A stretch of 64,000 nucleotides of DNA from Candidatus Obscuribacterales bacterium (GCA_965228855.1 CBDDIJ010000003.1:1504001-1568000); one strand, 5' to 3'; shown: positions 3,491-51,764, counted from the first letter of the stretch. Numbers and translations are program-made. The notes: a model not told the origin generated them from the letters alone.

Positions 3491-3569
3491 GATCGTAAAC
3501 CGATATCGGTTTGCGATCTCCAATGGAGCGCAAACCGATATCGGTTTGCGATCTCCAATGGAGCGCAAA
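3491..3569. repeat. CGATATCG-core palindrome array, 2 copies (exact 35-bp tandem unit)
   Basis: AAACCGATATCGGTTTGCGATCTCCAATGGAGCGC at 3497-3531 and 3532-3566; cores at 3501 and 3536. Confidence 0.9.
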
Positions 3570-3805
3570 GCTTGTCACGGCAGGGCTTTCAGGACTCGTG
3601 CGCCAGACCTATTAAATCCCAGGGCAGTTTTAAGCGGTTCGCAGAACTTTCGCAAAGCCCGTCTGTATCTTCTTTCCAATTGCGCTGTTGGAATGGGACG
3701 GTATACAACGGAAGTAGATGCATTAGCCTTAGTAGTTATCTCGAATCCTCCCTCACTCTCACAAAAGTGAGCCCAGGCAGTGCGATAAGGAAAGTTGGAG
3801 GTTAT

Positions 3806-4429
3806 ATGGACGGAAAGAACCCCGCCGGACTTTTTTGTGCTCTGGCGAACCGGTTACTGGAATTTTGCGGTCTGTGCCCAAATCGCGATTCTGAGCGAAA
3901 ACGCCTGGCTAGTCTAGCCCGACCGAATCACGAGGACGGCTCGCAAGAGATCGGTCCGCATACGGTTGCGGTACCGACCTCTCAAGATGTCCGTGCGGCA
4001 TTCGGACACGATAAAGACAATTTCTTGAGGGGCGAGTTGATACATGGAAAACGTGACGAGGTGGCTCGTCACAGTCAAGAAATCGTGACTAATTGGTTGC
4101 ATCAAGGGGAGTGTTTGGGTTGCAAATCCAATGGAAGCTTTCGCGACCACGATTGCGGCAAGAATAGCCAGTGGGATGCCGAAGTGGCTTACGAGCAGAA
4201 AGAATCGAGGCTTGTGGATTTTAGCGAAATAGGGCTTGGCATGAGCCGAGACAATCTGACGCAGTTTGTATATCAATCCAGCAACGACGGAAAGCCTGTA
4301 CCGCGCGCGAACGAACATGCCTCGAAGAAAACTGTGCAAGACATACCAGCAATGCAGTTCAATTTCGATAGGGTGGAATCGATCCAGGCAGACGCGACAA
4401 ACCGCCAGGCAAGGACGCATCAGCCATAG
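3806..4429 (+). CDS. Hypothetical protein
   Basis: 3' part of ORF 3455..4429; GGAGG RBS just before ATG 3806 (MDGKNPAGLF...). No recognisable family. Confidence 0.55.
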   Translation: MDGKNPAGLFCALANRLLEFCGLCPNRDSERKRLASLARPNHEDGSQEIGPHTVAVPTSQDVRAAFGHDKDNFLRGELIHGKRDEVARHSQEIVTNWLHQGECLGCKSNGSFRDHDCGKNSQWDAEVAYEQKESRLVDFSEIGLGMSRDNLTQFVYQSSNDGKPVPRANEHASKKTVQDIPAMQFNFDRVESIQADATNRQARTHQP

Positions 4430-4484
4430 GTGGGGCTGATGCTGCCGGCGGTCCTGCCTCTGGATTCGCTAAACAGGGTAGTTC

Positions 4485-4676
4485 CTAAACCGATATCGGT
4501 ATGGGAGTAGATGAAATTCGTAGACCGATATCGGTTTGAGAAAATTGGTGATCGTAGACCGATATCGGTTTACGATCGTCGTGAAGACTGAAACTTTTTG
4601 ACTGCACAGCCGAAAGATTTGAGCCGGGAATTTGGACGGTCTTTTTGAGATCGTAAATCGATATCGGTTTATGATG
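4485..4676. repeat. CGATATCG-core palindrome array, 4 copies
   Basis: Cores at 4491, 4526, 4560, 4659 (spacings 35, 34, 99); near-perfect copy GATCGTAGACCGATATCGGTTTACGATC at 4550-4577. Confidence 0.9.
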
Positions 4677-4815
4677 TCGGTGAACTTGGGGTGAATTTGG
4701 GAGTGATTCTATAAAGAGATGATGAGTCTTCACGAACGGACTTTTGGCAATAAGGTTGTGGCACAATAAGTCGATGTAGGACCATTTTCGTCAAGTCTTC
4801 TTTGAAGAAGGAATC

Positions 4816-5520
4816 ATGAAATTAGAGTTGCGGGGCGTCTCCAAAAAGTACAGCGATCACGATGTGAATGCGCTGAGGGATGTGTCGCTTGCGCTTAACG
4901 GCGGGGATTTCGTCGCAATCTGTGGTCCGAGTGGGTGTGGAAAGAGCACTTTATTGAATATTGTCGGTTTGATTGATAAGCCGAGTAGCGGCTCCGTAAT
5001 ACTTGATGGTGAGGAACTCAATTCGCTTGATGACGAGAAGCTCACGGTTTTGCGTGGCAAAAGAATTGGTTTTGTTTTTCAGTTTTTCAATTTGCTGTCG
5101 ACGCTTACGATCGAAGAGAATGTCGCGTTGCCACTCGAGTTATCGGGGCAGACAAAAGAGGCAGACATCAGAAAGAAGGTCGGTGACCTGTTAGAAAGAG
5201 TAGGGATCGCGAAGCGAGCAAAGTTTTATCCTTCGCAATTGTCGGGGGGCGAGATGCAACGTGCTGCGATTGCCAGAGCGGTCATCCACGCTCCGCAGAT
5301 CCTGGTCGCGGATGAGCCCACTGGAAATTTGGACAGTGAGAGCGGTAAGGTGATCCTCGAACTATTGAAGCAGTTAAACGAGAGTGACAATCAAACGATC
5401 GTCATGGCTACACACAGTGCGGAAGCGGCTTCATATGCGTCCAGACGAGTTGATATGCGTGATGGTCGAATCGTAGTGGATCAAGCTAGTGAACTAAGAG
5501 TATCTGCCGGAGAAGGATGA
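4816..5520 (+). CDS. ABC transporter ATP-binding protein (LolD/MacB-type)
   Basis: Walker A GPSGCGKS, LSGGEMQR signature, ADEPTGNLD, H-loop ATHS. Confidence 0.95.
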   Translation: MKLELRGVSKKYSDHDVNALRDVSLALNGGDFVAICGPSGCGKSTLLNIVGLIDKPSSGSVILDGEELNSLDDEKLTVLRGKRIGFVFQFFNLLSTLTIEENVALPLELSGQTKEADIRKKVGDLLERVGIAKRAKFYPSQLSGGEMQRAAIARAVIHAPQILVADEPTGNLDSESGKVILELLKQLNESDNQTIVMATHSAEAASYASRRVDMRDGRIVVDQASELRVSAGEG

Positions 5521-8081
5521 TGAATCTTTCGGCGAAGTTATTTTTTTCGTTTATCGTACGTGATCTGCTTAAGAATTGGGTGCGGACGGCAATCACCGTA
5601 GGTGGTATCGCGCTTGGTGTCAGTGTATTTCTTGCGATTACACTGGCGAACGAAACGGCGTTGGGCAAGTTCAAAGAGACAGTTGATGTGATCTCCGGGA
5701 AAGCAAACCTGGAGGTTCGTTCGCAATCGGGACGGTATATATCGGCTTCGTATATGCGAGACCTTGACTGGCTTCAGCAATTAGGCGTACGAATGGCGCC
5801 GATGATTCAGGAAACTGTCGTATTCGGAACAGAAGGACAGGATCCCGTGCAGTTAGTCGGCGTAGATGTGCTTGCCGACCCGGACTTCTTTGCTGGTGGT
5901 GTCGGTACCAACGAGTCATACGATATGTTTGCGCCGGACTCGGCGCTGGTTGGTTGGAGACTGGCGGAAAAATACAAGCTCAAAGTCGGCTCGACGTTTG
6001 ATTTGTACGTGAATGATCGGGCTCGGCAGTTTAAGGTGGCTGGGTTATTGGAAAAGGGCGGACTCGGTGGCGCATTCAGTGGCAATGTAGTGGCAACTGA
6101 CATTGAAAACGCGCAAGCGGCACTGGATAGCGAAGGGAAAGTTTCAGAGATAGAATTGATAGTTCCGGAGGCGATAGTCGAACAAGTCAAACTTGACTTG
6201 GAAAGTTCGTTGCCACCGTCTGTGGTGGTGGACCGTCCGGAAGCACGCGGCAACAACGTCGAGAAAATGACGCGTTCGTTTCAATATAACTTGACGGCGC
6301 TAGCGTTCATCGCGCTCATTGTTGGGATGTTTCTGATCTACAACACGATCACAATTTCAGTGATTCGACGTCGCGGTGAAATTGGAACGTTGCGTGCTCT
6401 GGGACTCCGCCGCGGCCAGGTCAGTGTTCTTTTCCTTTGCGAGGCTGCCGCCTTTGGTATTGTAGGCAGTGCCCTTGGTGTCCTGGCGGGGCTTGGATTC
6501 TCAGATGGCGCTCTCACTGCGATTGCCGGCACGATGGAACATTTTTATTTCCAGCATCCATTCGGTTCAACAAGCGCGGATCCGTGGACACTTACCAGAG
6601 CGTTTTTAATCGGTTTCGTCATAACGGTGCTTGCTGCTATTCCGCCGGTGTGGGAATCAACCACCGTGCAGCCGGCCGAAGCGGTCCGCAGAAGCTCTTA
6701 CGAATCGAAAGTGCTCGGGTCTGCACTAAAATTATCGCTTATCGGTACAGGCTTATTTCTGGTGGCGGCGCTGTCCGCTCAGGCTCCGCCAATAGCCGGC
6801 TTCCCGTTTATGGGATATGTTTCTGCATTATGTACAATCCTCGGCACCGCATTTTGCACACCAATAATAGTAAGAGCGGCGTTTTCAAAGTTGGGCTCGT
6901 CTACTCTTCTCAAGAAGGTCGCCGGCACGGAAGGTTTGCTAGCCGCGCGTGCTCTTTATGGCGCGAGCGGTCGCACGTCGCTCGCGGTGGCGAGTTTGAT
7001 GATCGGAATTTCAATGATGATCAGTCTGGCAATTATGATTTCGAGTTTCAGAAGCACCGTGGTCGCGTGGGTCGATCAAACGCTAAAAGCGGATATCTGG
7101 ATTCAGTCGGCATCACGTGAGCGAGGAAGCAGGCAGTCGCGGCTCGATCAATCCGTTATGAACGATATCAAGGTTTTACCTTCCGTCGCGGCTGTAGATG
7201 TTTTTGTAGAACAGCGAATGCAATACAAGGGTGAACCATCTATAGTGGCCGGAGGAGACTTCGATGTTTTGCGGCGTTTCGGTTCCTTACGGGTGACGTC
7301 TGCGGAAACGCCGGAACAAGTTTTTGCTCGCATGGGTGATGATGGCTGTTTCGTATCTGAAGCATTCGCAATCAGGAAGAATGTAAAAACAGGAGATGTA
7401 ATCGAGTTGCCGACCGATAGAGGAATCGTGAGCCTCAAAATCGGTGCTATCTATTACGATTACTCGAGCGACCTGGGACATGTAGTTATCGATCGCGCGC
7501 TCTATGAAAAGCTTTTCGACGACCATTCGCTTACCAGTATCGCGGTTTATTTGAAACCGGACGCCGACCTCGAAGCCACTCGCACTCAGATATCTGACGC
7601 GGTAGCGGGGAAATCGCTCATCTCGATGCGCAGTACGAGGGAGTTGCGCAAAGAGGCGATGCGAGTTTTCGATCGCACATTTGCGGTCACTTACGCGCTT
7701 CATACGATTGCCGTCTCAGTTGCACTGCTATCCGTTATGAACGCTCTTCTGGCGCTTTCTTTCGAGTCGCGAAGAGACTTCGGAATTCTTCGTTATCTGG
7801 GAGCGCAACGTATCCAGATTGAAAAGATCGTACTCGGTCAGTCGTTCTTTCTTGGTTGCCTCGGGAATATAACCGGTCTGGGAGTGGGTGCGATCCTGTC
7901 GTTGCTTCTGGTCAACGTTATAAACCGGCAATCGTTCGGATGGACGGTTCAACTTGCCGTCCCATGGGATTTTATTCTTCAATCCGGCTTGCTGGTTATA
8001 GTGGCAGCGCTCGCGGCCGGCTACATACCGGCAAGGCAAGCGGCGAAAACTCTGGCACCGGAAGTGGTGCGCGATGAATGA
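5517..8081 (+). CDS. FtsX/MacB-type ABC permease (duplicated architecture)
   Basis: Two periplasmic-plus-TM halves; RRGEIGTLRALG and RRDFGILRYLG motifs; ATGA overlap with the ATPase gene. Confidence 0.92.
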   Translation: MMNLSAKLFFSFIVRDLLKNWVRTAITVGGIALGVSVFLAITLANETALGKFKETVDVISGKANLEVRSQSGRYISASYMRDLDWLQQLGVRMAPMIQETVVFGTEGQDPVQLVGVDVLADPDFFAGGVGTNESYDMFAPDSALVGWRLAEKYKLKVGSTFDLYVNDRARQFKVAGLLEKGGLGGAFSGNVVATDIENAQAALDSEGKVSEIELIVPEAIVEQVKLDLESSLPPSVVVDRPEARGNNVEKMTRSFQYNLTALAFIALIVGMFLIYNTITISVIRRRGEIGTLRALGLRRGQVSVLFLCEAAAFGIVGSALGVLAGLGFSDGALTAIAGTMEHFYFQHPFGSTSADPWTLTRAFLIGFVITVLAAIPPVWESTTVQPAEAVRRSSYESKVLGSALKLSLIGTGLFLVAALSAQAPPIAGFPFMGYVSALCTILGTAFCTPIIVRAAFSKLGSSTLLKKVAGTEGLLAARALYGASGRTSLAVASLMIGISMMISLAIMISSFRSTVVAWVDQTLKADIWIQSASRERGSRQSRLDQSVMNDIKVLPSVAAVDVFVEQRMQYKGEPSIVAGGDFDVLRRFGSLRVTSAETPEQVFARMGDDGCFVSEAFAIRKNVKTGDVIELPTDRGIVSLKIGAIYYDYSSDLGHVVIDRALYEKLFDDHSLTSIAVYLKPDADLEATRTQISDAVAGKSLISMRSTRELRKEAMRVFDRTFAVTYALHTIAVSVALLSVMNALLALSFESRRDFGILRYLGAQRIQIEKIVLGQSFFLGCLGNITGLGVGAILSLLLVNVINRQSFGWTVQLAVPWDFILQSGLLVIVAALAAGYIPARQAAKTLAPEVVRDE

Positions 8082-8117
8082 CGACAGCGAGGCGAAGTTG
8101 ACGAGAACAGGGTTATA

Positions 8118-8290
8118 CGGCAAATGAACGAAAGCAAGGTTTATCTGGCGCCGGAAGTAAGAGAACGAAAGCGTGGTTTATATGGTGCCGGAAGTGATGG
8201 AAACGAAAGCATGAAATATAAGGAGCCGGAAGTGATGGGAACGAAAGCATGAAATATATGGAGTCGGAAGTGATAAAAACTAAAGCACGC
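8118..8290 (+). repeat. Degenerate 37-38 bp tandem direct repeat, about 4-5 units
   Basis: Unit approximately GCCGGAAGTGATGGGAACGAAAGCATGAAATATATGGA, head-to-tail with no spacers. Confidence 0.85.
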
Positions 8291-9421: not shown

Positions 9422-9581
9422 CGGTACAATAAACGCAACGTCGCGGCTTGAGTGCTGGAACGGATGCTTTTAATGCAACCAGGTTTCAACGCATGATGAT
9501 CGTTTTATCGAGCCGCCTGGCGTTTCGAAACCAGTTTCAGCACATCGGCATGGAACCTGCCGAGTGGAGATAAGTTAAGTT

Positions 9582-9974: not shown

Positions 9975-10034
9975 ATTGGCAGCGCAAGTTGTCGGGTAGA
10001 ACTTACTGGTAGTGGCAGCTGGCGGTAAGAGTTC

Positions 10035-10631: not shown

Positions 10632-10730
10632 GGCGAGCTGAAACCGCGCGTTTCGCTAAAGCAGTTTCGATCGGCTCAGCGTCGACAGTTTGCGATGAGC
10701 GGTTTAATCCACAATCGATTCTGTGCGCCT

Positions 10731-17261: not shown

Positions 17262-17322
17262 TTCTGTATACCGATATCGGTATACGATCTTTTGATCGCA
17301 GTCCGATATCGGTATACGATGA
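17262..17322. repeat. CGATATCG-core palindrome array, 2 copies
   Basis: GTATACCGATATCGGTATACGATC and GATCGCAGTCCGATATCGGTATACGAT; cores 17272 and 17304 (32 bp apart). Confidence 0.9.
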
Positions 17323-19277: not shown

Positions 19278-19337
19278 ACGCGTATTCCGATATCGATGTG
19301 AGTTTTGAGTCTAAACATAACCGATTTCGGTTTCAAA
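19278..19337. repeat. CGATATCG-core palindrome array, 2 degenerate copies
   Basis: CGTATTCCGATATCGAT (core 19288) and AACCGATTTCGGTT (core 19322), 34 bp apart. Confidence 0.7.
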
Positions 19338-19595
19338 CTGTTGTCTGTTCATGGATGATTGCGGCGGGCTTTATCTCTTACTACGGCTAAGCTGCGAGTC
19401 TGTCTTTTAACAGGCGTTGCAAGGATTCAGTCGCTTTATGTTTGTAAAACGGCTACGACACAGTGTCAGGCAGTATCCTTAATTATGACCGCGACTTTGG
19501 CGGCTGTTTTCAAACTTTCGCCTCTGTGGGGTTGAACAATCTGCTCCGTTCGACCATGCTATTAAAACGCCTGTGGCGTTTTCAAGGAGGTCTCG

Positions 19596-23930: not shown

Positions 23931-24056
23931 ACGCGTAAACCGATATCGGTTCAAAATTTCCCATTCGTAAATCGATATCGGAATACGATCTTTAGTTCGT
24001 ATTCCGATATCGAACTAAGATCTTCAATTATTAAAATCCGACATCGATTTACGACT
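23931..24056. repeat. CGATATCG-core palindrome array, 4 copies
   Basis: Cores at 23941, 23973, 24005 and 24039 (last is CGACATCG); spacings 32, 32, 34; between convergent genes. Confidence 0.9.
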
Positions 24057-26193: not shown

Positions 26194-26319
26194 TTTCGTA
26201 ATTCGATATCGGAGTACGTTTTAAATTTCGTCTTCCGATATCGGACTAAATTCAATGGATTCGTAATTCGATATCGGTTTACGCTGGCGAAGTTCGTATT
26301 CCGATATCGGATTAAGTTC
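26194..26319. repeat. CGATATCG-core palindrome array, 4 copies, inside the tRNA cluster
   Basis: Cores at 26204, 26236, 26269, 26302 (spacings 32, 33, 33). Confidence 0.9.
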
Positions 26320-26424: not shown

Positions 26425-26499
26425 TGGTCTGAGTGGGACGTGCTGCCCGTCCGGCCTCCCGCTTCCAAGGCGGGCGCTCTACTGTTGAGCTACACCCAG
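26425..26499 (-). tRNA. tRNA-Pro(TGG) with non-canonical T-loop, CCA encoded
   Basis: CTGGGTG/CACTCAG-A-CCA; CCCGC-CTTGGAA-GCGGG; GGACG-GGCAGCA-CGTCC. Confidence 0.85.
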
Positions 26500-29255: not shown

Positions 29256-29315
29256 GTTCGTCAACCGATATCGGTTTGCGAAAACAGGATCGTCAACCGA
29301 TATCGGTTTACGATC
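29256..29315. repeat. CGATATCG-core palindrome array, 2 copies
   Basis: TTCGTCAACCGATATCGGTTTGCGA and GATCGTCAACCGATATCGGTTTACGATC; cores 29266 and 29298. Confidence 0.9.
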
Positions 29316-33644: not shown

Positions 33645-34295
33645 ATGAGTCGCGGCGACGACGATTTGAACAAGGCTAGATCGGAAACCGATATCGATTT
33701 ACGATCGACCGATGCCCAGGAATGTTTGCCAGTGAAGGAACCGGGGACTCGGCGCTTCTTTGAAATTTTGCAGACAATCGCCACGGTTATTTTCCTGGTG
33801 GTCACGGCGTTCTGGTTGACACCTGACAAGGCACCGAGTGCGGTGCTGAAGCAGACCATCGTCAATCCTATAAAAACGTTTTGGTTGTTCTGGGGATTGG
33901 AACAGAATTGGGCTTTGTTTTCGCCAATTATCAAGGATATCAACTATCACACGGTTGGCATCATCACCAGACAAGACGGCTCCAATGAGATCTGGGAAGC
34001 GCCACGCATGGACAAACTAGACCTGCTCGAACGGTTTCGCCAGGAGAAATACAGAAAATGGAGTATAGACAGTCTTCCGTGGCCGGACCACAAAGAATTC
34101 TGGCCTTATATCGCACGCTATGTGGGAAGGCAAAAGTATAGAGCGGACAATCCGCCGGCTAAGTTTACGCTCCTCTTGTTCTGGACTAAGATACCGCCGC
34201 CACTGACCTCATTCACAAGCCGAGGGAAACTGCCTCCACACACCAGTTGCAATAACGTGTTTACTTACGAATATTCCGCGGAGGATTTCCGCTGA
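33645..34295 (+). CDS. Membrane-anchored protein, SdpA/DUF5819-like partner of HTTM proteins
   Basis: One TM helix followed by GLEQNWALFSP; directly upstream of the HTTM gene (TGATG overlap). Confidence 0.7.
   Translation: MSRGDDDLNKARSETDIDLRSTDAQECLPVKEPGTRRFFEILQTIATVIFLVVTAFWLTPDKAPSAVLKQTIVNPIKTFWLFWGLEQNWALFSPIIKDINYHTVGIITRQDGSNEIWEAPRMDKLDLLERFRQEKYRKWSIDSLPWPDHKEFWPYIARYVGRQKYRADNPPAKFTLLLFWTKIPPPLTSFTSRGKLPPHTSCNNVFTYEYSAEDFR
33679..33706. repeat. Single CGATATCG-core palindrome within the 5' end of ORF 33645
   Basis: GATCGGAAACCGATATCGATTTACGATC, 2 mismatches to the consensus. Confidence 0.85.
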
Positions 34296-36412: not shown

Positions 36413-37213
36413 ATGGCATCTAGCATTGGCTCGCACAGAAACGTGCGATGGAAACGTGTACTCGATTTTTTGGCTGTGGCCGGACCTATTATCTGTTTGA
36501 TCGACTGCGTTGTATTGCCAGTGGCGAGTGCGTTGTTGCCGTTTCTAGGCATGACGGAATTCGGTCATGGAATAAATGATCAGCAATTGTTCTTGCTTAT
36601 CATTGCCATATGCGGACCGATTATTATTCCAGGCTACCTCAAGCACCGAAACAAGCGCGTTCTAACGATGTTCGCAGTCGCAATCAGTATGATGTTCATT
36701 GTCAATTTTGTTGATCTAATTGCTGACGAAACCGTTCACGCAATAATTTCTCTGAGCGCCGCATGTTTGCTAATTAAAGCTAATCGAGACAATAAAAAAC
36801 TGCTCTCGTGTGCGTGTTCAATGCATCACCACGGCGCAGATCATCAAACTCCGGCAGCGCAGGCGAGCAACGCATTCAGTCAACTGATCCACGTGCAAGG
36901 TGAACATATCCATTCTGATGCATGTTCAGGAGTGCATGATCACTCCATTCCTGAGAGCTCGGTTAATACGGCGCGCACATTCGCGCATGTTCATTCATTC
37001 CATTCCCGCTCATATACCTCCGAGGGAGAACAGCAGCTTGAGCACGATCACGCTGCCTGTCTCCATGAGGTCGTGGTAGCTCTTGATCGTCATAATCACG
37101 GACTTGACCCGAATCACTTTGAACCGCGAAACAATCTCAACTTTGAACCGGTAGCCGGAGCAGAAGCACTACATGCGGTGCAGGCTCCGCACACCGCAAA
37201 TTGCTGCGGCTAG
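36413..37213 (+). CDS. MerC-like membrane protein with a His/Cys-rich tail
   Basis: LDFLA...PIICLIDCVVLP, GYLKHR, about 4 TM helices; long His-rich C-terminus ending in CCG. Confidence 0.8.
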   Translation: MASSIGSHRNVRWKRVLDFLAVAGPIICLIDCVVLPVASALLPFLGMTEFGHGINDQQLFLLIIAICGPIIIPGYLKHRNKRVLTMFAVAISMMFIVNFVDLIADETVHAIISLSAACLLIKANRDNKKLLSCACSMHHHGADHQTPAAQASNAFSQLIHVQGEHIHSDACSGVHDHSIPESSVNTARTFAHVHSFHSRSYTSEGEQQLEHDHAACLHEVVVALDRHNHGLDPNHFEPRNNLNFEPVAGAEALHAVQAPHTANCCG

Positions 37214-37273
37214 TCGGCAAATTATCTTCGAGCCTCCACTGCGTGCTTCCATCTGATAGTCTCACGTTCTGGT

Positions 37274-38377
37274 CTAGGCCACTGCAGGCGCTTTGAGATT
37301 GACCACAGTCAGAACTTGCGGCGACACATAGCTTCTTATGTCGCCATCTGTAACTGGTGGTGACGCTAGTATTTTGTCTAGCAGTTTTCCCTGGGACCAA
37401 TATTCTCGATCATTACTGATCCAGTGCAGCGCAAGGTAGAGCTGAGATGCTTTCTGGCTGATTCCTCCAAACACCTCCAGGATGAAACTCAAGATCGATC
37501 TTCTTAAGTTCGGATCTAAATCTGCACCAATTGCTTTGGCTTTTGGAATCGAGTTAGGATGTCGGTAGAGATAATCGAGTTTGCGAGCCACCAAACCAAC
37601 GACCTCCAGAGTGGATTGCTTGATCGCCACATCCATGCTCCATTCGTCCTTAAACCGCGCACAAAGATCATCAAAATAGCAAGGGCTCTCGGCGATTGTC
37701 GCAAAAATCTCCAGGTGCTGAGCGGTCAGCTCAGCCAACTCCTTTTCCAAAATTTCGGGAAACTCGTAAGAGAAAACTTCTCCTGTGCTTTCAATCGTAA
37801 TTTGTTTGGTGATCGTCTTTGGCGGAATTGTGTCTTCCGGTGAAGGCTCTTGTTGCTCTGCTTTCGGATGCTCGCGAGCAGGTGTTTCGGAACTTCTTCG
37901 AGCTATCGCTCTTTCGATTTCCGTACAATGTACCAGCTTCAACACGTCGTCGCTAGGAAACGACTGGATGATTACAAACGCGCATTTCTTCAACATGTTA
38001 AGGCTCGTTGAATAAACCACAGTGGAATGTCGGCTGAACTCGCTGGCGCTGAATTGCAGCCCTTCCTCAAGCAAAGTGACAAGGAAGAGATATTCAAGCG
38101 TAGAGGCTCTTCGTGTGTCTTCCAAAAACGTGCCGGTAGTGAAGGACTGTTTTCGGCCACAGCTGAGACATAGAATTTTTCGTTTGTTGTCGCAACGTAC
38201 GAATGTCTGCTTGAAACAATTCAAGCAGCGCAGAATCTGTTTGTCTGTCAGCATCTTGAACAAATAGGCCTCTCCAGACTCCACGCTCACAAATGTTTTA
38301 TCGAACGATTTGCGCCTCAACGCTATCAATTTTTCGTTGTCGGATATTTCGGTTGGTTTCTTCGATTTGTTTTTCAT
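37274..38377 (-). CDS. IS1595-transposase-derived protein: Zn ribbon/HTH plus winged-helix-like segment, no visible DDE core (alternative start 38428)
   Basis: CLNC...CLSCGRKQSFTTGTFLEDTR, SASEFSR..V.YST...MLKK, C-terminal F.GIS.K.SQLYL. Confidence 0.75.
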   Translation of the reverse strand: MKNKSKKPTEISDNEKLIALRRKSFDKTFVSVESGEAYLFKMLTDKQILRCLNCFKQTFVRCDNKRKILCLSCGRKQSFTTGTFLEDTRRASTLEYLFLVTLLEEGLQFSASEFSRHSTVVYSTSLNMLKKCAFVIIQSFPSDDVLKLVHCTEIERAIARRSSETPAREHPKAEQQEPSPEDTIPPKTITKQITIESTGEVFSYEFPEILEKELAELTAQHLEIFATIAESPCYFDDLCARFKDEWSMDVAIKQSTLEVVGLVARKLDYLYRHPNSIPKAKAIGADLDPNLRRSILSFILEVFGGISQKASQLYLALHWISNDREYWSQGKLLDKILASPPVTDGDIRSYVSPQVLTVVNLKAPAVA

Positions 38378-38541
38378 AGTCGGAACCAGGACGGTGAACA
38401 AAACGGTTATAAAGTATCTTGTTCGCATCGTGAAGTAGCAAAACCCGCCATTTCATGGGGGTCTTGACGGTCGCTTTACGCGAAAGGGGGATTGACAGTC
38501 AAGCTTTCAGAAAGATTTAATCGAACGTCGAAGTCATAATT

Positions 38542-38635
38542 GATCGTAGTCCGATATCGGAAATTGAAGTCGAAAAACGTAGACCGATATCGAATTGAGA
38601 AGATAAGAGTCTCAATCCGATATCGGAATACGATT
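38542..38635. repeat. CGATATCG-core palindrome array, 3 copies
   Basis: Cores at 38552, 38585, 38618 (spacings 33, 33). Confidence 0.9.
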
Positions 38636-38668
38636 AACGGAGACTGGAACCGCTCAATGGTAGAGCGT

Positions 38669-43083: not shown

Positions 43084-46000
43084 GCATGGATGATGCGATT
43101 ATCGAACCGGTCGACACTGTTTCAATCAAACCGATAACAGTCATAGCCGCCAGTGCCGGCACTGGCAAAACCTACCGGCTGTCTCAAGAGTATCTGAAAG
43201 GTCTGGAGGCGACGACCAGGAACGATTCGGGCATTATAGCCACCACCTTCACGAATAAAGCCGCCGACGAATTGCTCGAGCGCATTCGACGCCTGCTTCT
43301 CGCCGAAGGCAACTGGCTTGCAGCGCAGGGCGTTTTAAGTGGTTACCTGGGAACAGTAAATGCTCTCTGCGGCCGCTTCTTAGCCGAACACGCCATCGAC
43401 GCCGGTCTGTCGCCGGATTTAACGATTATCGCAGAAGACCGATTACAAGCCGTTTTTGCAATTGCAGTGGACTCGGTCATTCATGAATTTGCCGGGCAAA
43501 TGCACGGACCGACAACACGCCTTCAGCTCGACAACTGGAGGCGCGATGTGCAAACAGTAATCGACCTCGCCCGCGACAATAACATCGAAGCGGAGGAACT
43601 CGAGAATCTTGCCGAGCAGTCCTGGCAAACCCTGAAAAAACTTCTTCCGATATCGGACTGTGAACATGCCGACAATCTCGATGCCGTAATAGCGCAGAAG
43701 ATCGACGAAATTTTGAAACAGCTTCCCGGCAAAGACGACCACACAAAAGGTACTCAGTCCGTCATCGAAAAACTAAAAGATGTTCGTTTGAAAATTAAGA
43801 GCGGTTCGCACATCGTTTGGCAGTCATGGGCGGATATGTCCAAACTGGCGGTCGGAAAGAATAGTCGAGAAATCATCGAACCGCTTGTGCAGGCCGCTCA
43901 AGTATACGCGCGGCATCCGCGCCTGCACGATGACATTAAGACTGTCATCTTTGGCGTGTTTCGTTGCGCCGCAGCTGCTATGAAAACCTACGAGGCTTAT
44001 AAGCGAGAGCACGGTCTGATTGACTTTGTCGACCAGATGCTGCTTACGCTCAAACTTCTGCAAAACCCTCAAGTCAGAGAGGCACTGCAGTCGAGGACAC
44101 ACCTTCTACTCGTAGACGAGTTTCAAGATACAAGTCCAATTCAGTTATCGATATTTCTGGAGCTCGCAAAACTGGTCGAATACTCCGTGTGGGTCGGCGA
44201 TGAGAAGCAGTCTATTTTTGGGTTCCGAGGGTCGGATCCCGAACTCATGCGCCAGGCAATTGAGACCCTTGTCACCAAAACTGGTGGCAGCAAAGATGTA
44301 TTGGTACGATCGTATCGGTCAAGACCAAAGCTAGTCGGTTTTACCAACGCCTTATTTTCCAGATGCGACCAGCTGCGCCTCATAACATCGACTAGCTCGA
44401 TCATCGAAGAAGTAAACCGCACTGAGTTCGAAGAACAGAATGATCCGTTGCACGTTTGGTGGCTGAAGGGCAAGCGGCAGGAGCAGTCATTCGCCTGTCT
44501 GGCAGCGGGGATCCGGGAGGTTCTGGACAATCCGGAAAAATGGCAGGTCCTTGACCGACACACCCAACAGCTTCGCCCAATCACAGGTTCGGACATAGCG
44601 ATTCTTTGCACGCGAAACACCAACCGCATAAAGGCCGCTAAAGCTCTGGTTGCTGTCGGGCTCACTGTAGCGACTGAGCGCGACGGCTTGCTCGACACAC
44701 CGGAGTGCGTTCTGGCTTGCGCGGCACTGAGAATAATCGTAGACGAAACCGATACACTGTCAGTTGCGGAACTCGCTAATCTGCTCTCTGACAGTTCCGG
44801 CGCCTGGCTAGATGACGCTATCAAATTGCGAGGGAAGACCAGGTCGAAAAACTGGCAGTCTGTTGAATCTCCGCAGTTATCTAAAACCAATCAGTGTCTG
44901 GACGATTTGAACCGGATAAAGTCAGCTTGCCTCGATCGCACACCTTCGGAGGTTCTCGAGAGTGCCATCAATGCCGATGGCATCATGAACACGATTATCT
45001 CGTGGGGCAATGTGCGTCAACGTCTGGCGAACCTTGATTCACTTCGGGGAATCGCCAAAACATACGAGGACTTATGCACTTCGTCAAGGATGCCCGCCAC
45101 AGCAGCTGGTCTGATTTTGCACCTGCATAAGTTCGTCGTGAATGGTGGCAGTCAATCAGCGAATCCAGATGAGAACGGCATTCACATACTCACGTATCAC
45201 AAGTCAAAAGGTCTTGAGTGGCCGATGGTCATACTTTGTGATCTGGACAGAGCGATTCCAGGCAACCCGTTCGGAGTCAAAGTTGAATCTAACAAGGCTG
45301 AACTCGATCCACTCAATCCACTACTAGGCAGAACGATTCGTTACTGGCCGTGGCCGTTCGGGAAGCAGCGATCCAAAATTGCACTGAATGATCAGGCTAT
45401 GAAAACCCCGCAAGGAAAAATTGCCGCCAAGCAGACCGCATCTGAAAACGTTCGCCTTCTCTACGTAGGTATGACGAGAGCACGTGACTACTTGGTTTTC
45501 GGGTGTCGTCCATATGGTTATGGCCCGCAATGGTTGAAATGTTTAACGGACAAAGAGTACGACTTGCCGCTCATGACCCTGTCCGATCGCGGCATCGCCT
45601 ATAAAGCCGAACTGATAGAAGAGGTTCCAGAATCGCTGACGCAGTTTACACCAATTGAAGAGCCGTCACCGGAGCAGTACTCGTCTATGAAGACCTCAGA
45701 TTGGTATTCCCCAATTCCCGTCCCGCAAGATAAAACAACAAAACATCCTCGCTATTACCTAAATCCCAGTGCAGCTTCCGATACTGACTTCGCGCTGGTC
45801 GCCGGCAGTAAAACCGAAACATACATAATCGGCGAGCGAATTCCCCTCAAGGGGACTCCTGACATGCTTACTGTCGGAGACTGCGTTCACGCGTTCCTGG
45901 CAGTTGATGATCAATCATCTGCCATGGAGAAGCGTATGGAAACGGCATCAAGGGTGGTGGCAGGTTTCAACGTCGAGAACCTGGAATTGCAGTCGTTGCC

Positions 46001-46355: not shown

Positions 46356-46367
46356 ATACTGATTGCA

Positions 46368-46838
46368 TTACCAACGATGGAAGGCAGGGTGCCCCTCTTT
46401 TACGGCCACAAAAACAGACGTGCAGGTCGCACAGACTTTTCCGCCAGCAACTAATTCCCCATATACAGTCGCTCTATCCTCTTTCGAATCGACGACCCGT
46501 GCCACCATTGTAATTGCACCATCACATGGCGTCGGTCTCTTGAATTTCACATTATGCTCCGCCGTAACAGTACACGGAGGCGAGCTCAGACCATTTTGCT
46601 GCATAATGTGCCAGGACGCCATCCAGTTGCAATGACAATCTAAAAGACTGCAAACCATACCGCCATATATGATTCCTGGAAAGGCCTGGAACTTCGTCTC
46701 AGGCTGCCACGAGGCTACCAGGCTCCCGTCATCCTGAGGGAAGCTACTTATATGCAGACCATCCGGGTTAGCCGGACCGCATCCGTAGCAAATGCTCTTA
46801 GGCGCGTATTGTACCTGCAGGCAAATTTTTTCAGACAA
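46368..46838 (-). CDS. PaaI family thioesterase
   Basis: CYGCGPANPDGL, PGIIYGG..SLLDCH, VTA..VKFKRPTP. Confidence 0.88.
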   Translation of the reverse strand: MSEKICLQVQYAPKSICYGCGPANPDGLHISSFPQDDGSLVASWQPETKFQAFPGIIYGGMVCSLLDCHCNWMASWHIMQQNGLSSPPCTVTAEHNVKFKRPTPCDGAITMVARVVDSKEDRATVYGELVAGGKVCATCTSVFVAVKEGHPAFHRW

Positions 46839-46895
46839 GTTGAAATCCTCTCAGTAACGCAAACCATAGCCTAGCATGCCATTCATCGATTCCTA

Positions 46896-46923
46896 GTTCG
46901 TAAACCGATATCGATTTACGATA
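46896..46923. repeat. Single CGATATCG-core palindrome
   Basis: TTCGTAAACCGATATCGATTTACGAT. Confidence 0.85.
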
Positions 46924-47186
46924 AGCGCCGACTGTAATCTCGCAAAGCAAATCACCTGAAAGGTCATATCCCTTCGGTTTTCAGCGTTCCATTGCCGGCA
47001 ACACTCCATCCCTCGTCTGCTAGTTAAGTAAATAAGTTACCGAATGCCTAGCATCTGGCTCGGGAATTTGAAGAAGCGCATGCAAAGAATGCCGACAACT
47101 TAAATCGAAATTGTTGAATACAGAGCGGAGCCGGCATGAATTGAACCGCGAGCCCAGAGAAAACTAAGACAAGCAGTTTATTGAGT

Positions 47187-47750
47187 ATGAAACCAATCGA
47201 AGTCACCCACTTCACCAAGCGGCTTGTGCTGGAGCCGCTAACTAAGCAGCATGCAAGCAAACTCTTTGAAGGGTTTAGCTCCCCTAAGTTATACGAATAT
47301 ATCCCGCAGAATCCACCGGCTTCGACGTCTGAATTGGAGACTCGGTACGGACACCTGGAAAAACGCACTTCTCCTGATGGTGGCAGCCTGTGGTTGAACT
47401 GGGCTTGCCGGTTGATAGCGAGTGACATTTATATAGGATTAGTTGAGGTAACATTAGACATTCACTCAATCGATGCGGCATTGGCGTACTTCATTTTCTC
47501 AGATCATCAGCACCTTGGATACGCAAGAGAGGCATGCGAGGCAGTACTTGAGCATATTTTCAGAGACTACGAGGCAGTGTCTTCGACATCTGAAATTGAC
47601 GACCTAAATGAAGCATCGATAGCCCTCGCTCATAGACTAGGTTTTCGGAAACTGGGGGACTCAAGAGCCGTTACTCCTTATAAAGGGAAAGCTCATTCTG
47701 AGGGAAGATATTCACTAACTCGCGAACGTTGGATGAGTCGCTCAACGTAG
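47187..47750 (+). CDS. GNAT N-acetyltransferase (RimJ/RimL-like)
   Basis: TKRLVLEPL, LAY.I....GYAREA, NEASIALA.RLGF. Confidence 0.88.
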   Translation: MKPIEVTHFTKRLVLEPLTKQHASKLFEGFSSPKLYEYIPQNPPASTSELETRYGHLEKRTSPDGGSLWLNWACRLIASDIYIGLVEVTLDIHSIDAALAYFIFSDHQHLGYAREACEAVLEHIFRDYEAVSSTSEIDDLNEASIALAHRLGFRKLGDSRAVTPYKGKAHSEGRYSLTRERWMSRST

Positions 47751-47826
47751 TGCTTATAGAGCTATGGGTCGTCGCAGTTCGCGAGAGTTGACGAACACAT
47801 TCGTGTCAAGAAAATAAACGAGCTTA

Positions 47827-48405
47827 CTAGTCTCGTGAGATGAAAAAGGCTCTTCTTAGTTTCTCCTTGCCGACAATAGTACCGACGGCTCGGAACGAGA
47901 AGAACACAATGAAAGTCACGAAGAACGCAAGTTGATGAGCAAGAAAACAAGGCCAGAATGTTTGAGGATTAGACGCTGGTGTAGCTCCCTTCTCGTGGTG
48001 AAAGAAACGTTCCTCGAAATGCATAATCACGTTTACGAGCGCAGTGAACAAAATTGACTTGTAAAGAACAGGATAGATAAAGGGTTTGTGCTCGAATCTT
48101 TTAGCCAGAGGCATTTTTTCGAGAACAAAAACAAACTTACCCAGGGCTACTGAACCGACCAGTGCAGTAGCATAGCTGGTAAGAAAATCGTTCTGAGAAC
48201 AGGCTACTAGCAGCGTCGTACAGCGAAATGTTTGCAGAATGCAAAAGGAGACGGCGAGGTATGCCATCACTGTTCCAACTTCGATAGCCTCTTCTCGTAA
48301 CTTCTCCTTCCAGGATTTTTTTTCGATGATAGTGCCTGAATCGCTCACAGATGAGGATTCAATCGAAGGCGTCTCTTGATCGGCTAGGGGCACAGATTCG
48401 TTCAT
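47827..48405 (-). CDS. Hypothetical membrane protein (about 4 TM)
   Basis: Four hydrophobic segments; no family recognised. Confidence 0.75.
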   Translation of the reverse strand: MNESVPLADQETPSIESSSVSDSGTIIEKKSWKEKLREEAIEVGTVMAYLAVSFCILQTFRCTTLLVACSQNDFLTSYATALVGSVALGKFVFVLEKMPLAKRFEHKPFIYPVLYKSILFTALVNVIMHFEERFFHHEKGATPASNPQTFWPCFLAHQLAFFVTFIVFFSFRAVGTIVGKEKLRRAFFISRD

Positions 48406-48539
48406 ACTTGATGGCGGCGGAGGACATGGGGACCGGCAGGTGCATCATTTTAGCAGTCCAATTCTTCAAGCGCGCTAGTCAGCATCGATAGGTGACGAAT
48501 TGAAGGGCGGACGTGAAGTTTACGTTTCGTTTAAAATGC

Positions 48540-48568
48540 TTGAAAACCATTCAGTCCTGGGTTAACCT
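48540..48568 (+). promoter_or_regulatory. Candidate sigma-70 promoter of the his operon
   Basis: TTGAAA, 17-bp spacer, TAACCT, upstream of the leader ORF. Confidence 0.45.
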
Positions 48569-48601
48569 CCCAGTACTAGTTGCGCAAGGACTGCTATCGA
48601 C

Positions 48602-48700
48602 ATGGTTGTCGGACTCCCACAAAACTTGAATCTGGCGGTTGATGCCCACGGACATCACCATCATCATCATGTTTTCCGGCGGAGCGGCCTGAACGGATAG
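48602..48700 (+). CDS. hisL: his operon leader peptide (32 aa)
   Basis: Manual translation MVVGLPQNLNLAVDAHGHHHHHHVFRRSGLNG*; six consecutive His codons. Confidence 0.88.
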   Translation: MVVGLPQNLNLAVDAHGHHHHHHVFRRSGLNG

Positions 48701-48726
48701 ACACAGCATTGTGCTAGACCTTCTTC

Positions 48727-48756
48727 AAGAGCCCGCTCCGGCGGGCTCTTTTTGTT
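48727..48756 (+). terminator. his attenuator terminator
   Basis: AAGAGCCCGC-TCCG-GCGGGCTCTT followed by TTTGTT; antiterminator partner CCGGCGGAGCGG at 48676-48687. Confidence 0.9.
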
Positions 48757-48774
48757 CTTCAAGGGGATAAATCT

Positions 48775-49713
48775 ATGACTGTAAAATCGGCACCCGGTAA
48801 GGAGAAGGAAACTTCGACAACGAACTGCAACAAAGAAAGTGCTGAAAATGTGCTTTCCATGACGCTTCCAACGGGGCGAATTCAAAATAAGGTTCTCGAA
48901 CTCCTGACCCAAATCGGAATAAACGTAAACAAGAGTGAGCGGTCCTACAAGCCTACTGTTTCTGCCGACGGCATTCAGGTCAAAATGTTGAAAGGACAGA
49001 ATATTCCAGAACTGGTTGCGCTTGGAAGGCACGATTGCGGATTCTGCGGCTACGACTGGATCGTTGAACGAGAAGCTGATGTTGTAGATTTACTCGATCT
49101 GGGTTTTGACCCTGTGAGAATTGTCGCAGCGGTTCCGGAAGATCTTGTAGCAGATAGAGCAAACGGTTTTAAAAATCTGGGGCGGCAACTTATCGTGGCT
49201 TCCGAATATCGTGGACTCACACAAAAATACATCGAGGAGCAAGGACTCGAAGCAGTTTACTTACAGACCTTCGGCGCGACAGAAGCATTGCCTCCGGAAG
49301 ACGCGGACATGATTATCGACAATACGGCCACCGGCACGACCCTGAAGCAGAATCGATTGACGATTATCGATGACTTGCTTCGTTCCACAACTCGATTCAT
49401 CTGTAATAAAAAGGCCCTGGAAAATCAGGTAAAAAAGAAGATGCTTGAAGAGATGGTCATGCTGATGGAAAGTTGCTTGCGCGCTCGCAACAAAGTTTTG
49501 CTTGAGATGCATTTCAGCTGCGAAGATTTCGAAACGGTGATCAAGCAGCTGCCGTGTATGAAAGCACCGACCATAAGCAAACTATACGGAGAAGAAGGTT
49601 ACGCTGTAAAAATCGCTGTGGAAAATCGGGAAATTCCTACGCTGATTCCGAAACTCGTGTCCATGGGCGCACGCGACATTTTAGAATTTCGTCTGGAGAA
49701 AATTGTCATATGA
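48775..49713 (+). CDS. hisG: ATP phosphoribosyltransferase (long form)
   Basis: LP.GR, IP..V..G..D.G..G.D, FGATE, ADMIID..ATGTTLKQN.L, C-terminal PTIS.L...GARDIL. Confidence 0.95.
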   Translation: MTVKSAPGKEKETSTTNCNKESAENVLSMTLPTGRIQNKVLELLTQIGINVNKSERSYKPTVSADGIQVKMLKGQNIPELVALGRHDCGFCGYDWIVEREADVVDLLDLGFDPVRIVAAVPEDLVADRANGFKNLGRQLIVASEYRGLTQKYIEEQGLEAVYLQTFGATEALPPEDADMIIDNTATGTTLKQNRLTIIDDLLRSTTRFICNKKALENQVKKKMLEEMVMLMESCLRARNKVLLEMHFSCEDFETVIKQLPCMKAPTISKLYGEEGYAVKIAVENREIPTLIPKLVSMGARDILEFRLEKIVI

Positions 49714-51764
49714 TGAACGGACAGGCACCCGAAGGTAAAAAGACAGATCGTAATCCGATATCGGACTACGAAAATGAGGATCGTAATCCGATATCGGACT
49801 GCGAAACTGGAAACCGTACTCCGATATCGGAATTGAAATACCCGGGACGGGTAAAGCCCCGCCAGGCAGTACTTTCCAGCCAACCCTACGATGCACCGAT
49901 GGAGGGCCGCGCTCGCGCGATTCGGTTTGACTTTAACGAGAGTACGGGGCCAATTGAAGGTTGCTATCCGGAAGGACTGCCAGCAGAACTCGTGAGCATG
50001 TATCCGGAGTACGGCGAACTTCTTCAAAAGTTGGCGGAGCGATTCGAACTCAGTCGTGAAAATTTCACTCTCACAAATGGAAGCGACGAAGCTATCTCGT
50101 TGATCTCCAATACATTTATCGAGCACGGTCAAGATACCGCGCTAATTTCGACGCCGTGCTTTTTTATGATCAAACAATGCTTGCGACTTGCCGGAGCGAA
50201 ATTGCAAGAGGTTTCCGTCGACAAAGAATTGCAATTTGACCTTGACGAAATAGACGCTCAGCTTAAATTAAGCCCGAAATTGGCGATGTTTGCAACGCCG
50301 GACAACCCGACTGGAAGCGTCATTCCGCCTAATACGATTGAAACCTGGTGCCAACTCTACCCAGACGTACTCATCGTTATTGACGAAGCATATGGTGAGT
50401 TCGCAGGGACGAGCGTGATACCACTAATAAATAAGTACGATAATCTTTTAGTGCTGAAGACTTTCTCCAAAGCTTGGGGGATGGCAGGGTTTCGCTTGGG
50501 AATGGTTGTAGGGAACGCGCACCTGATCGAGTTTTTGAAGCGTGTCAAATTGCCTTACAGCGTAAATTCGGCAGCTGTTTTCACGGCGTTGCGGCTGCTC
50601 GATCGTGAACACGACATGGCAGCGCGTGTCGCCGAAACCGTAAGACTGCGCACGCGATTATCTAAATTTCTTGATGATCGCGGATATAAAGTTCGGGAAA
50701 CTAGTGCGAATTGGTGTCTGCTCGGCACAGGGTTTCTCGCAAGGAAGTTCTCAGAATTTACTGCGTCAAGAAATTTGCTGGTTCGCAACCGCAGCACATC
50801 CGAATTTTCCAGATTTGCCGGCGCGAGTTCACCCAATAGTGAGCAAACGATGACTTCTTCTACTTTCGAGCCAATGTGGGGGCAGATTCGCGTTTCAGCA
50901 GGAAACGCGGACGAAGTCGCAGTCTTTGAAAAGATCGTCGATCAGTTTCGAGATAGCTATGCATTGATCTTTGACCTCGACGGGACACTGGTCGACACTT
51001 CGAAAAGCTTCGACAAAACCGTCGAGTATCTTGTCGAAAAATATAGTGGAGAGAAGCTCGATCTCAGCGAATTGGCCGAACTCAGGCGTGAAGGTGGTTT
51101 CAATGACGATTGGGTCGCTTCGCGAGAATTACTCAAACGTCGCGGTTTTGATATATCACTGGCAAAGATCGCGCGCGACGGTGAGAGTTTCTATCTATCA
51201 ATTGCCAGAGACAACGAAGAGCTCTTGTTGCCGCTGTCTCTTTTAAAGCAACTTAGAAAGCGCCATCCACTGTTCATTGTAACAGGCAGAACGCGTGCCG
51301 AATACGCTCCTGTCTGGGGCGAGCGATTCGATCCCCTGTTTGATCGCGTATATTGCGTCGACGACGTTCCCGGTTGTCGAGCTAAACCGCATCCGGACTA
51401 TCTGCTACAGGTATTAAAAGATTCCGGCATCACCTGTGGTGCATACATCGGAAACGCGGTAGACGACATGCAAGCAGCGTGTGCCGCCGGTCTTACTGCG
51501 ATAGGTGTGGCCGAGGTACTTGTCGGCAAGCCGGCTATATCAGTTGTGACCGGCGGTTCAGACCGTCGCGAGCCGGGCACGAAAGTTGAGGGCGAGTATT
51601 TTGATAATACCGAGGAAGAGTCCAAAACTTCTTCAAGTGCCCACGAGCAGCTTTGCCAGCGAACCGCGCTGAAACGTGCCGGAGCACACGCCATAATCTC
51701 GAACTGCTCAGAACTCGAGGAACTTCTCATGGTGTCGTCAGCTCCGCAGTCGTCCCAAACGTAA
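49710..51764 (+). CDS. hisC: Histidinol-phosphate aminotransferase fused to a HAD-superfamily phosphatase
   Basis: DFNE, NGSDE.I, PDNPTG, DEAYGEF, KTFSKAWGMAGFRLG; then FDLDGTLVD, VTGR, KP.P, GNAVDD; ATGA overlap with hisG. Confidence 0.9.
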   Translation: MMNGQAPEGKKTDRNPISDYENEDRNPISDCETGNRTPISELKYPGRVKPRQAVLSSQPYDAPMEGRARAIRFDFNESTGPIEGCYPEGLPAELVSMYPEYGELLQKLAERFELSRENFTLTNGSDEAISLISNTFIEHGQDTALISTPCFFMIKQCLRLAGAKLQEVSVDKELQFDLDEIDAQLKLSPKLAMFATPDNPTGSVIPPNTIETWCQLYPDVLIVIDEAYGEFAGTSVIPLINKYDNLLVLKTFSKAWGMAGFRLGMVVGNAHLIEFLKRVKLPYSVNSAAVFTALRLLDREHDMAARVAETVRLRTRLSKFLDDRGYKVRETSANWCLLGTGFLARKFSEFTASRNLLVRNRSTSEFSRFAGASSPNSEQTMTSSTFEPMWGQIRVSAGNADEVAVFEKIVDQFRDSYALIFDLDGTLVDTSKSFDKTVEYLVEKYSGEKLDLSELAELRREGGFNDDWVASRELLKRRGFDISLAKIARDGESFYLSIARDNEELLLPLSLLKQLRKRHPLFIVTGRTRAEYAPVWGERFDPLFDRVYCVDDVPGCRAKPHPDYLLQVLKDSGITCGAYIGNAVDDMQAACAAGLTAIGVAEVLVGKPAISVVTGGSDRREPGTKVEGEYFDNTEEESKTSSSAHEQLCQRTALKRAGAHAIISNCSELEELLMVSSAPQSSQT
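49746..49839. repeat. CGATATCG-core palindrome array, 3 copies, in frame in hisC
   Basis: Cores 49756, 49789, 49822 (spacings 33, 33); reads DRNPISDYENE-DRNPISDCETG-NRTPISELK. Confidence 0.9.

Follow-up and report, generated by a model that had tools for sequence, protein, structure and literature searches.

A transposase-derived gene and its local palindromes in Candidatus Obscuribacterales: a possible selfish shield against curing by transformation

Palindromic sites and a candidate gene in the window

The DNA examined in this study is a stretch of 64,000 nucleotides from Candidatus Obscuribacterales bacterium (GCA_965228855.1 CBDDIJ010000003.1:1504001-1568000), hereafter the window. It carries arrays of a palindrome of about 28 bp and, behind one of these arrays, a gene for a transposase-derived protein (Table 1). 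We demonstrate below that in this bacterium and its relatives the gene and the palindromes co-occur in cis, that the palindromes come in paralogue-specific variants, and that gene and sites are gained and lost together.

The window was scanned with a matrix built from 26 of its own copies, and matches of at least 20 bits were taken as sites. This yielded 28 sites at 12 loci. The initial annotation had listed the same number of copies at 11 loci, having missed the site at 43638 inside addA, and the second copy that it placed at 19.3k turned out to be a degenerate sequence, AACCGATTTCGGTT, lying about 33 bp beyond 19278 and scoring below 8 bits. For the copies from which the matrix was built its scores are circular, so chance was assessed with separate models. 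According to an order-5 Markov model, 0.11 occurrences of CCGATATCGG were expected in the window and 18 were seen, and 0.24 occurrences of the exact 14-mer core AWCCGATATCGGWT were expected genome-wide, where 32 were seen; the motif is thus far above the Markov background. Moreover, the genome contains 64 sites of at least 18 bits, compared to a single one after shuffling it in 6-mer blocks. The palindrome repeats are real and chance is excluded.

The core spacing of 32-35 bp, with one larger interval of 99 bp, was found in the window as first described, and so were arrays between tRNAs (26194-26319) and within open reading frames (ORFs; 33679, 43638 and 49746-49839). The array in the HisC ORF is missing in 6/6 more distant congeners. 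That ORF (49554-51764), when read by eye, encodes a HisC-like aminotransferase seemingly fused to a HAD-type domain, and the three palindrome copies at its N-terminus translate as DRNPISD-type repeats. At the gathering score, Rfam detected six tRNAs only in the window and no structured-RNA family for the palindromes; the sixth tRNA (26428-26499) was missed by ARAGORN.

Table 1. Palindromic sites and the candidate cognate gene in the window (positions counted from its first nucleotide; G001 and G007 are related genomes)
Feature	Coordinates	Strand	Site starts	Remarks
Satellite array, 2 copies	3491..3553		3491, 3526	35-bp tandem duplication; one copy in G007
Satellite array, 4 copies	4481..4676		4481, 4516, 4550, 4649	Spacings 35, 34, 99 bp
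Satellite array, 2 copies	17262..17321		17262, 17294	Between nrtR and nadA; none at the orthologous place in G001
One site and one degenerate copy	19278..19338		19278	
Satellite array, 4 copies	23931..24056		23931, 23963, 23995, 24029	Five copies in G007
Satellite array, 4 copies	26194..26319		26194, 26226, 26259, 26292	Within tRNA cluster
Satellite array, 2 copies	29256..29315		29256, 29288	
Single site	33679..33706		33679	N-terminal part of ORF 33645-34295
Cognate gene	37274..38428	-		Probable start 38377 (367 aa); IS1595-type Zn ribbon + HTH, DprA-type winged helix; motifs RRSxETPxxHP and IS1595-like C-terminal helix GISxKxxQLY; no DDE core
Upstream 'master' array, 3 copies	38542..38635		38542, 38575, 38608	33-bp period; 165-258 bp before the probable start of the cognate gene
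Single site	43638..43665		43638	Inside addA (UvrD-type helicase); in frame over conserved Leu-Leu-Pro codons
Single site	46896..46923		46896	Two copies in G007 and in a contig of sequencing run X5
Satellite array, 3 copies	49746..49839		49746, 49779, 49812	33-bp period; in-frame N-terminal extension of HisC

The sites are clustered around three paralogues of the gene

The host genome (G000; 8.2 Mb in 6 contigs) contains ORF 37274-38428 in three full-length copies, besides one weak short relative. Its proteins have homologues assigned to Candidatus Obscuribacterales and Melainabacteria. The 64 strong sites form three clusters, each with one full-length copy within it: C3 0.955-1.050 Mb, C3 1.499-1.627 Mb (the window cluster) and C5 1.113-1.209 Mb. 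What had been described as a dispersed family is therefore a set of three clusters of about 60-130 kb each. The regions within 60 kb of the three paralogues amount to 4.4% of the genome and hold 58 of the 64 sites and 35 of the 40 site loci, and 14 of 61 cluster sites lie in long ORFs. Such confinement around the paralogues, together with the lack of ParB on the main contigs, does not bear out the nucleoid- or parS-like genome-wide role that had been proposed. When the profile was drawn for 11 genes in 5 genomes, all chosen for having clusters, the density of site loci per 10 kb decreased with distance from the gene from 2.2 (1-10 kb) through 1.7, 0.75 and 0.62 to 0.30 (50-100 kb), with a background of 0.04. 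Contigs obtained from the sequencing runs, of which X3 may have been the origin of the assembly, agreed with it and showed no gene-free joint.

The short relative (C3:1367200-1368592) lacks the winged helix and has no palindrome cluster; it is preceded by a different tandem repeat, the units of which start with TCGCTCAGGGAACCTGAA.

Gene and sites are gained and lost together in relatives

The exact 14-mer occurred in 25 of the 36 other family genomes and in 0/24 genomes from outside the family. At 56 of 79 non-redundant homologue loci a palindrome was found 45-320 bp upstream of the gene, including 10/10 loci in G019 and 10/10 in G030. In G012, 20/20 sites lay no further than 70 kb from its three full-length paralogues, and G002 has two clusters with two palindrome variants. 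The complete single-contig genome G061 has three clusters (AAAATAAACCGATATC, AAACGTAATCCGATATC and AAACCATATCCGTTAAC), each made of the variant that stands upstream of its own gene, and leave-one-out assignment placed 34 of 36 sites in the right cluster.

Both gain and loss could be followed. Four congeners (G001, G002, G005 and G006) share 221 kb of synteny with the window; the gene is missing from its place between the merC-like gene and the sugar-porter gene, and they have no site of the window's type. Conversely, G022 lacks the gene at a locus where G061 has it, and there 0/6 sites in 20 kb are intact, having been deleted, halved or recoded, with relic half-sites. The same sites are kept in G061, G062 and G065 (6/6) and, for the most part, in the more distant G063 (5/6); G062 is about as distant from G061 as G022 is.

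Several further arrangements were seen. G061 has a small GTTAAC cluster around a split paralogue at 3.965 Mb, and about a dozen well-paired AAAACCTNAACCGATATCGGTT-type sites (L158-L176) are scattered in this genome far from full-length paralogues. At three loci of G091 (L053, L063 and L067) the palindromes lie downstream of the paralogues and have other cores (TCGTTAACGA and ATCGGTACCGAT), with none upstream.

The sites have probably arisen by point changes and unit duplication

Intragenic sites are in register with their orthologues, contain no indel and occupy codons that already matched by half; examples are Leu-Leu-Pro in addA (43638) and, in the G061 group, Tyr-Arg-Phe and the site in moeA. 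Four of the five intragenic sites of G061 with an aligned orthologue were in register, the fifth lying at a ragged end of the alignment. Array copy number changes by duplication of the unit, and the period differs between clusters: 32-35 bp in the window, 38-42 bp in the C5 cluster, 36 and about 70 or 65-66 bp in G002, and 40-41, 46 and 80-84 bp in G013. The sites of G061 are nearly all single. Accordingly, phasing by three helical turns, which the window had suggested, is not a rule, since the 32-35 bp period is confined to its cluster.

The palindrome is most conserved in its central 10 bp. Compared to G007, the cores had 1.7% substitutions and distant non-coding DNA 8.4%, a difference that is biased because the sites were chosen in G000, and in the flanks 10-30 bp from the sites substitutions were raised to 12-14%. 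The variable positions are often unpaired, as noted from the outset: 64 of 114 non-consensus pairs were symmetric, with 56 expected (z 1.8), and 9 of 16, with 8.7 expected, in the window cluster. When all sites were pooled, arm symmetry was in excess (513 vs 464), mostly because strong and weak sites were mixed, and the conditional test for hairpin covariation was not significant. Since positions are conserved without an excess of pairing, a protein site fits better than a hairpin. The pattern matches a protein site maintained by selection or by a bias in conversion and does not match an inserted hairpin.

An alternative is that the upstream palindrome is copied enzymatically over part-matching DNA, either by template switching at forks blocked by the protein or by a catalytic partner, in which case selection on individual sites would not be needed. 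The near-perfect GTTAAC cluster of G061, where 7/9 sites are perfect over 28 bp and one of them lies inside a gene, and the upstream palindromes of G019, whose locus-specific arms are perfect and up to 32 bp long, leave room for such templated writing, which is also in line with the raised substitutions in the flanks and the variable tandem copy number. At the same time, the protein has no conserved catalytic set (neither a DDE nor an invariant Tyr), the excess of symmetric non-consensus pairs is not significant, satellites show no symmetry beyond 14 bp and no target duplication was seen, and the in-gene sites lie on codons that had half matched beforehand. We consider this alternative improbable.

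The palindromes of G019 (L137-L146) lie about 93-149 bp upstream of the paralogues; at 7/10 loci they have perfect arms of 26-32 bp, the outer parts of which are locus-specific. One arm may be repeatedly copied onto the other, or a long hairpin may have been selected.

The protein combines a transposase-derived N-terminus with a DprA-type winged helix

The alignment of 36 relatives revealed a Zn ribbon with a helix-turn-helix (HTH), an invariant RRSxETPxxHPxxE motif, a variable linker, a DprA winged helix and a C-terminal GISRKYLQxY helix. Compared with the intact IS1595 transposase of G100, the N-terminus matched over residues 18-145 with an hhalign probability of 98.7%, the alignment ending at 145. 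PF12760 was detected in 6 of the 36 members, and the four Cys are conserved at 99% in 160 aligned rows. By eye, the C-terminal helix resembles the IS1595 C-terminus. In the same 160 rows there was no conserved DDE triad or Asp pair, and no HUH pair or invariant Tyr. The initial annotation had proposed either binding sites for a dimeric protein or a REP/BIME-like element spread by a dedicated protein. A dedicated and probably dimeric protein can be retained, with ORF 37274-38428 behind the array at 38.5k as the candidate; spread by insertion is not borne out, given the lack of indels and of a recognisable catalytic core. The palindromes are very probably the cis-acting binding sites of this transposase-derived protein, as predicted from their arrangement and from its domains.

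The winged helix matched PF17782 in 28 of the 36 members. Up to 31 of its 60 residues are identical to those of this host's own DprA (median 23; 17/60 in the window copy), and Leu257 is conserved in 92% and Glu258 in 90% of the 160 rows; residues E258/259 may be the counterparts of E353/L354 in V. cholerae. The predicted structure of the window protein had a pLDDT of 94 and a pTM of 0.85. Foldseek found no match to it in the PDB at E ≤0.001, the only hits being winged-helix regulators, all at E >0.1, and no RNase H-fold match; a sequence search of the PDB likewise gave weak winged-helix matches only (DprA 3maj, E 0.024).

With the single window protein as query, relatives were detected in 30/36 family genomes and in 0/24 others. 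A profile search found none at E 1e-25 in 300 genomes of the phylum outside the family; at E 1e-15 its 103/103 family hits include weak ones that probably come from ordinary genes for IS1595 or DprA. As many as 19-20 profile matches occur per genome, and clustering of the protein family at 50% identity in a large library gives 695 clusters. A quick tree of 70 rows groups the paralogues mostly by genome, and the GTTAAC core requires 5 changes for 6 rows, 3 of them forced by strong branches. Grouping by genome and repeated changes to GTTAAC indicate recurrent expansions within genomes and recurrent switches of specificity.

Compared to G007, the window gene has 39 synonymous and 20 non-synonymous codon changes, and synonymous changes outnumber non-synonymous ones in all three paralogues of G000. 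Varied housekeeping genes surround the paralogues (58 proteins scanned). We found no fixed element ends or cargo around them, and the nine G030 loci share no common ends, although the copies in G030 are 50-81% identical in protein, so that shared ends may have decayed. The gene tends to stop against a convergent host gene (9/10 in G019 according to ORF calls, and also in the window, 36413-38428), which suggests insertion at convergent junctions.

This domain composition could also belong to an autoregulator. The protein would then repress itself from the upstream palindrome, the host would add auxiliary sites that loop or soak it up, and the winged helix would serve oligomerisation or DNA contact unrelated to ComM. 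The position of the palindrome upstream of the gene, the cluster-specific periods, which suggest cooperative binding, the decay of sites once the gene is lost, the divergence of the window's winged helix and the weak Foldseek matches to winged-helix regulators all agree with operators or a local sponge. However, 10-45 sites over ±50 kb, some of which alter residues of host enzymes, far exceed what autoregulation needs, and it would be easier for the host simply to delete the gene. Moreover, neither the capture and conservation of a DprA-type domain nor the repeated within-genome expansions would be explained. Thus, we regard operators or a sponge as unlikely.

Position of the clusters in the chromosome

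The window lies at a skew switch opposite dnaA. The peak of the combined GC and TA cumulative skew is no more than 50 bp from the master array in G000 and no more than 10 bp in G007 (C5:76700), which, with the lack of ParB on the main contigs and the purifying selection on the gene, could point to a domesticated chromosome organiser that compacts or anchors the DNA or stops forks in the manner of parS, matS or Ter, here at the terminus. However, the peaks of GC skew alone and of the skewed 8-mers lie about 13 kb beyond this point. The switch was found at one of the three G000 clusters and its orthologue in G007; the other two G000 clusters and the six stretches of G061 and G012 were negative, and G013 gave an equivocal pattern. 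In addition, the G061 clusters are far from the expected terminus, the gene is freely lost and gained, and in four congeners the region contains neither gene nor sites. An organiser is therefore very improbable, a terminus or fork trap was rejected as a general rule, and the coincidence of the skew peak with the master array is probably due to chance.

Two further candidates were rejected. Regarding parS/ParB, PF02195 was found on contig C4 only and the clusters are far from dnaA. A dif-like 11-6-11 site does not agree with a most conserved central 10 bp and 28 copies, and all 17 PF00589 matches are more than 350 kb away from the window.

Contig C4 (GC 0.29-0.66) and C2:1-50000 (0.66 at the start of C2) have a GC content far from that of the rest and are probably contamination. 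A second repeat family, containing CTGCAAACAAGATTG and TGCAAATTGGTTTGCAGC, occurs genome-wide in G000 in 13-29 copies.

A possible local shield against curing by transformation

G000 carries comM, dprA and comEC, and ComM was above the cut-off in 94/104 family genomes. The winged helix of DprA recruits, rather than inhibits, the transformation helicase ComM (PMC12012524). As described in the accessible part of PMC11441513, deletion of inserts is strongly lower without ComM, and islands that disrupt comM escape curing; because ComM is needed for efficient deletion of inserts, AbaR islands gain from breaking it. The text available of PMC13663708 gives a median tract length of 6.0 kb with ComM and 2.0 kb without it; the median size of a recombination event is 6 kb, and imported segments can be tens of kb long (PMC13663708, PMC11441513, accessible parts). 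Curing by transformation in general is treated in PMC12637031 and reviewed in PMC12378983, both available in part.

Our leading, though tentative, explanation is that of a selfish, locally acting system in which the gene may prevent its own deletion by natural transformation. In its full form, which we hold to be plausible but somewhat short of probable, a dead transposase that has acquired the ComM-docking domain of the host's DprA would act on private palindromes, rewrite about 100 kb around itself, essential coding sequences included, and counteract curing locally, while paralogues would switch specificity and hold separate territories. The protein would in all likelihood bind the palindrome as a dimer through the IS1595-derived Zn ribbon and HTH and the C-terminal helix. 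It may work preferentially in cis, as IS1 transposase does (PMC12903888, accessible part), and an IS1-like cis preference would explain both the locality and the paralogue-specific territories. The winged helix, which is of DprA type and in some members half identical to the host's DprA, would still bind ComM, so that the protein at its sites would capture or block the helicase locally. In favour of a role for this domain, satellites were found in G082 within 20 kb of 3/4 full-length paralogues and of 0/5 paralogues without the winged helix, a contrast that comprises nine genes of one genome. Bound sites within the length of a transformation tract would resist replacement and protect the linked gene, and DNA from gene-free neighbours would then recombine less easily across the locus to delete it. 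Near-matches in the flanking host DNA, coding DNA too, would come closer to the palindrome through point changes and increase in number through tandem duplication, with a spacing suited to each paralogue, and the sites would decay after loss of the gene.

The same partners could serve the opposite end, with the protein loading ComM at the sites, extending tracts and favouring the transfer or copying of its own locus, e.g., between chromosome copies after uptake. Such a drive would suit the recruiting, not inhibiting, action of the DprA winged helix (PMC12012524), the requirement of ComM for inserting heterologous DNA (PMC13663708, text available in part) and the numerous profile matches per genome that group by genome on the tree. 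However, a gene-free recipient contains no protein when single-stranded donor DNA enters, and third-position divergence between G000 and G007 showed neither a local dip nor a rise around the genes. We therefore judge a drive to be quite unlikely.

Several observations weigh against such a local shield. Binding to DNA and to ComM is predicted, and the competence of these bacteria is predicted from their genes. The window protein itself has no Pfam match, its winged helix being below the PF17782 cut-off, and the C5 paralogue lacks the conserved Glu of the winged helix, yet all three G000 clusters are maintained. In G019 and G030 there are 10-12 paralogues whose winged helices are canonical, but almost no satellites, and 23 of the 79 homologue loci have no upstream palindrome under the filter used. 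Furthermore, in G061 only 28 of 61 copies of the 12-mer core WCCGATATCGGW are near its two GATATC paralogues, 33 being elsewhere, and 13 well-paired sites are far from any full-length paralogue. The clusters of G000 can be told apart only in part (26/39), as can those of G012 (13/20). Purifying selection on the paralogues also fits a host function. The movement to new loci, possibly by an IS1595 transposase in trans or by illegitimate recombination, falls outside this account. Finally, the divergence of the ComM C-terminus does not track site load.

Predictions of a complex between host ComM (190-520) and the winged helix of the window protein (208-276) disagreed between runs (0.73, 0.00 and 0.00) and speak neither for nor against binding. 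An arms race in ComM was rejected, as among 32 genomes its C-terminal divergence is as high in G011, G023 and G024, which have no sites, as in site-rich genomes. Residues ~470-482 of the G000 ComM (L206), close to the part that contacts DprA in the ComM of V. cholerae, read WLAREVSNRGFTA in place of the consensus LLARAVxQLGLSA; similar divergence occurs in genomes without sites.

Even without a mechanism, one dispensable gene has reshaped the host sequence around it over about 100 kb, and sister genomes provide the controls for gain and loss. The 695 clusters perhaps represent many protein-site pairs of differing specificity, suited to studies of recognition switches and perhaps a source of orthogonal binders. 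If the link to ComM is true, the system would oppose chromosome curing at a single locus, and it would become possible to test directly the debated view that transformation serves to purge selfish DNA; site fields would mark past curing pressure, and their width would report tract length in mostly uncultured bacteria.

Comparison with known systems

Dimer-type palindromes grouped in one chromosome region near their own gene are characteristic of ParB/parS, MatP/matS, Noc/NBS and RTP or Tus/Ter. Here the fold is unrelated, there is no fixed position relative to origin or terminus, 1-19 paralogues have different sites, and gain and loss are free. Uptake sequences (DUS/USS) and Chi sites occur throughout the genome, are not palindromic and are recognised by the machinery of the host, and they have been built by point change in coding DNA through recombination or uptake bias. 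The motifs described here are likewise products of point change in coding DNA, but they are palindromic, local and linked to a multicopy gene that is dispensable.

The REP/REPIN-RAYT systems, as far as the accessible literature presents them, similarly link a transposase-derived gene to its own short palindromes, which are variant-specific and often located between or after genes. However, the RAYT described there is a catalytic HUH nuclease and REPINs insert genome-wide, whereas here there is no catalytic core, the sites stay within tens of kb, they originate by in-frame substitution and they show no hairpin-type covariation. Membership was rejected: the gene is of IS1595 type without HUH, 58 of the 64 sites lie within 60 kb, and 64 of 114 pairs are symmetric vs 56 expected. 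With the IS1595 family (ISXO2-like) the gene shares the Zn ribbon and HTH, a similar C-terminal helix, the multicopy state and varied host neighbours; it differs in that the DDE core is replaced by the DprA winged helix and a central palindrome lies upstream. No terminal inverted repeats or fixed ends were found, though they may have decayed. An origin of the half-site from IS1595 ends was also rejected, as the candidate inverted ends of two IS1595 loci are dissimilar to it.

The literature within reach, which left out most subscription papers and bioRxiv supplements, held no description of the repeat or the protein family, and the part available of the review PMC12378983 lists no strategy in which a captured domain is tethered to private DNA sites. 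The system lies outside REP/RAYT, IS1595, parS, Ter/matS and dif and borrows from IS1595 and from DprA; it might well be, though we would not call it probable, a new kind of selfish element. From DprA-ComM recruitment it has the same PF17782 winged helix (PMC12012524), and with the mobile elements that disable comM (AbaR) it would share the gain, namely escape from curing, according to the accessible parts of PMC11441513 and PMC12378983. Those elements break or repress competence genes with effect on the whole cell, whereas the captured domain proposed here would act from private sites at one locus.

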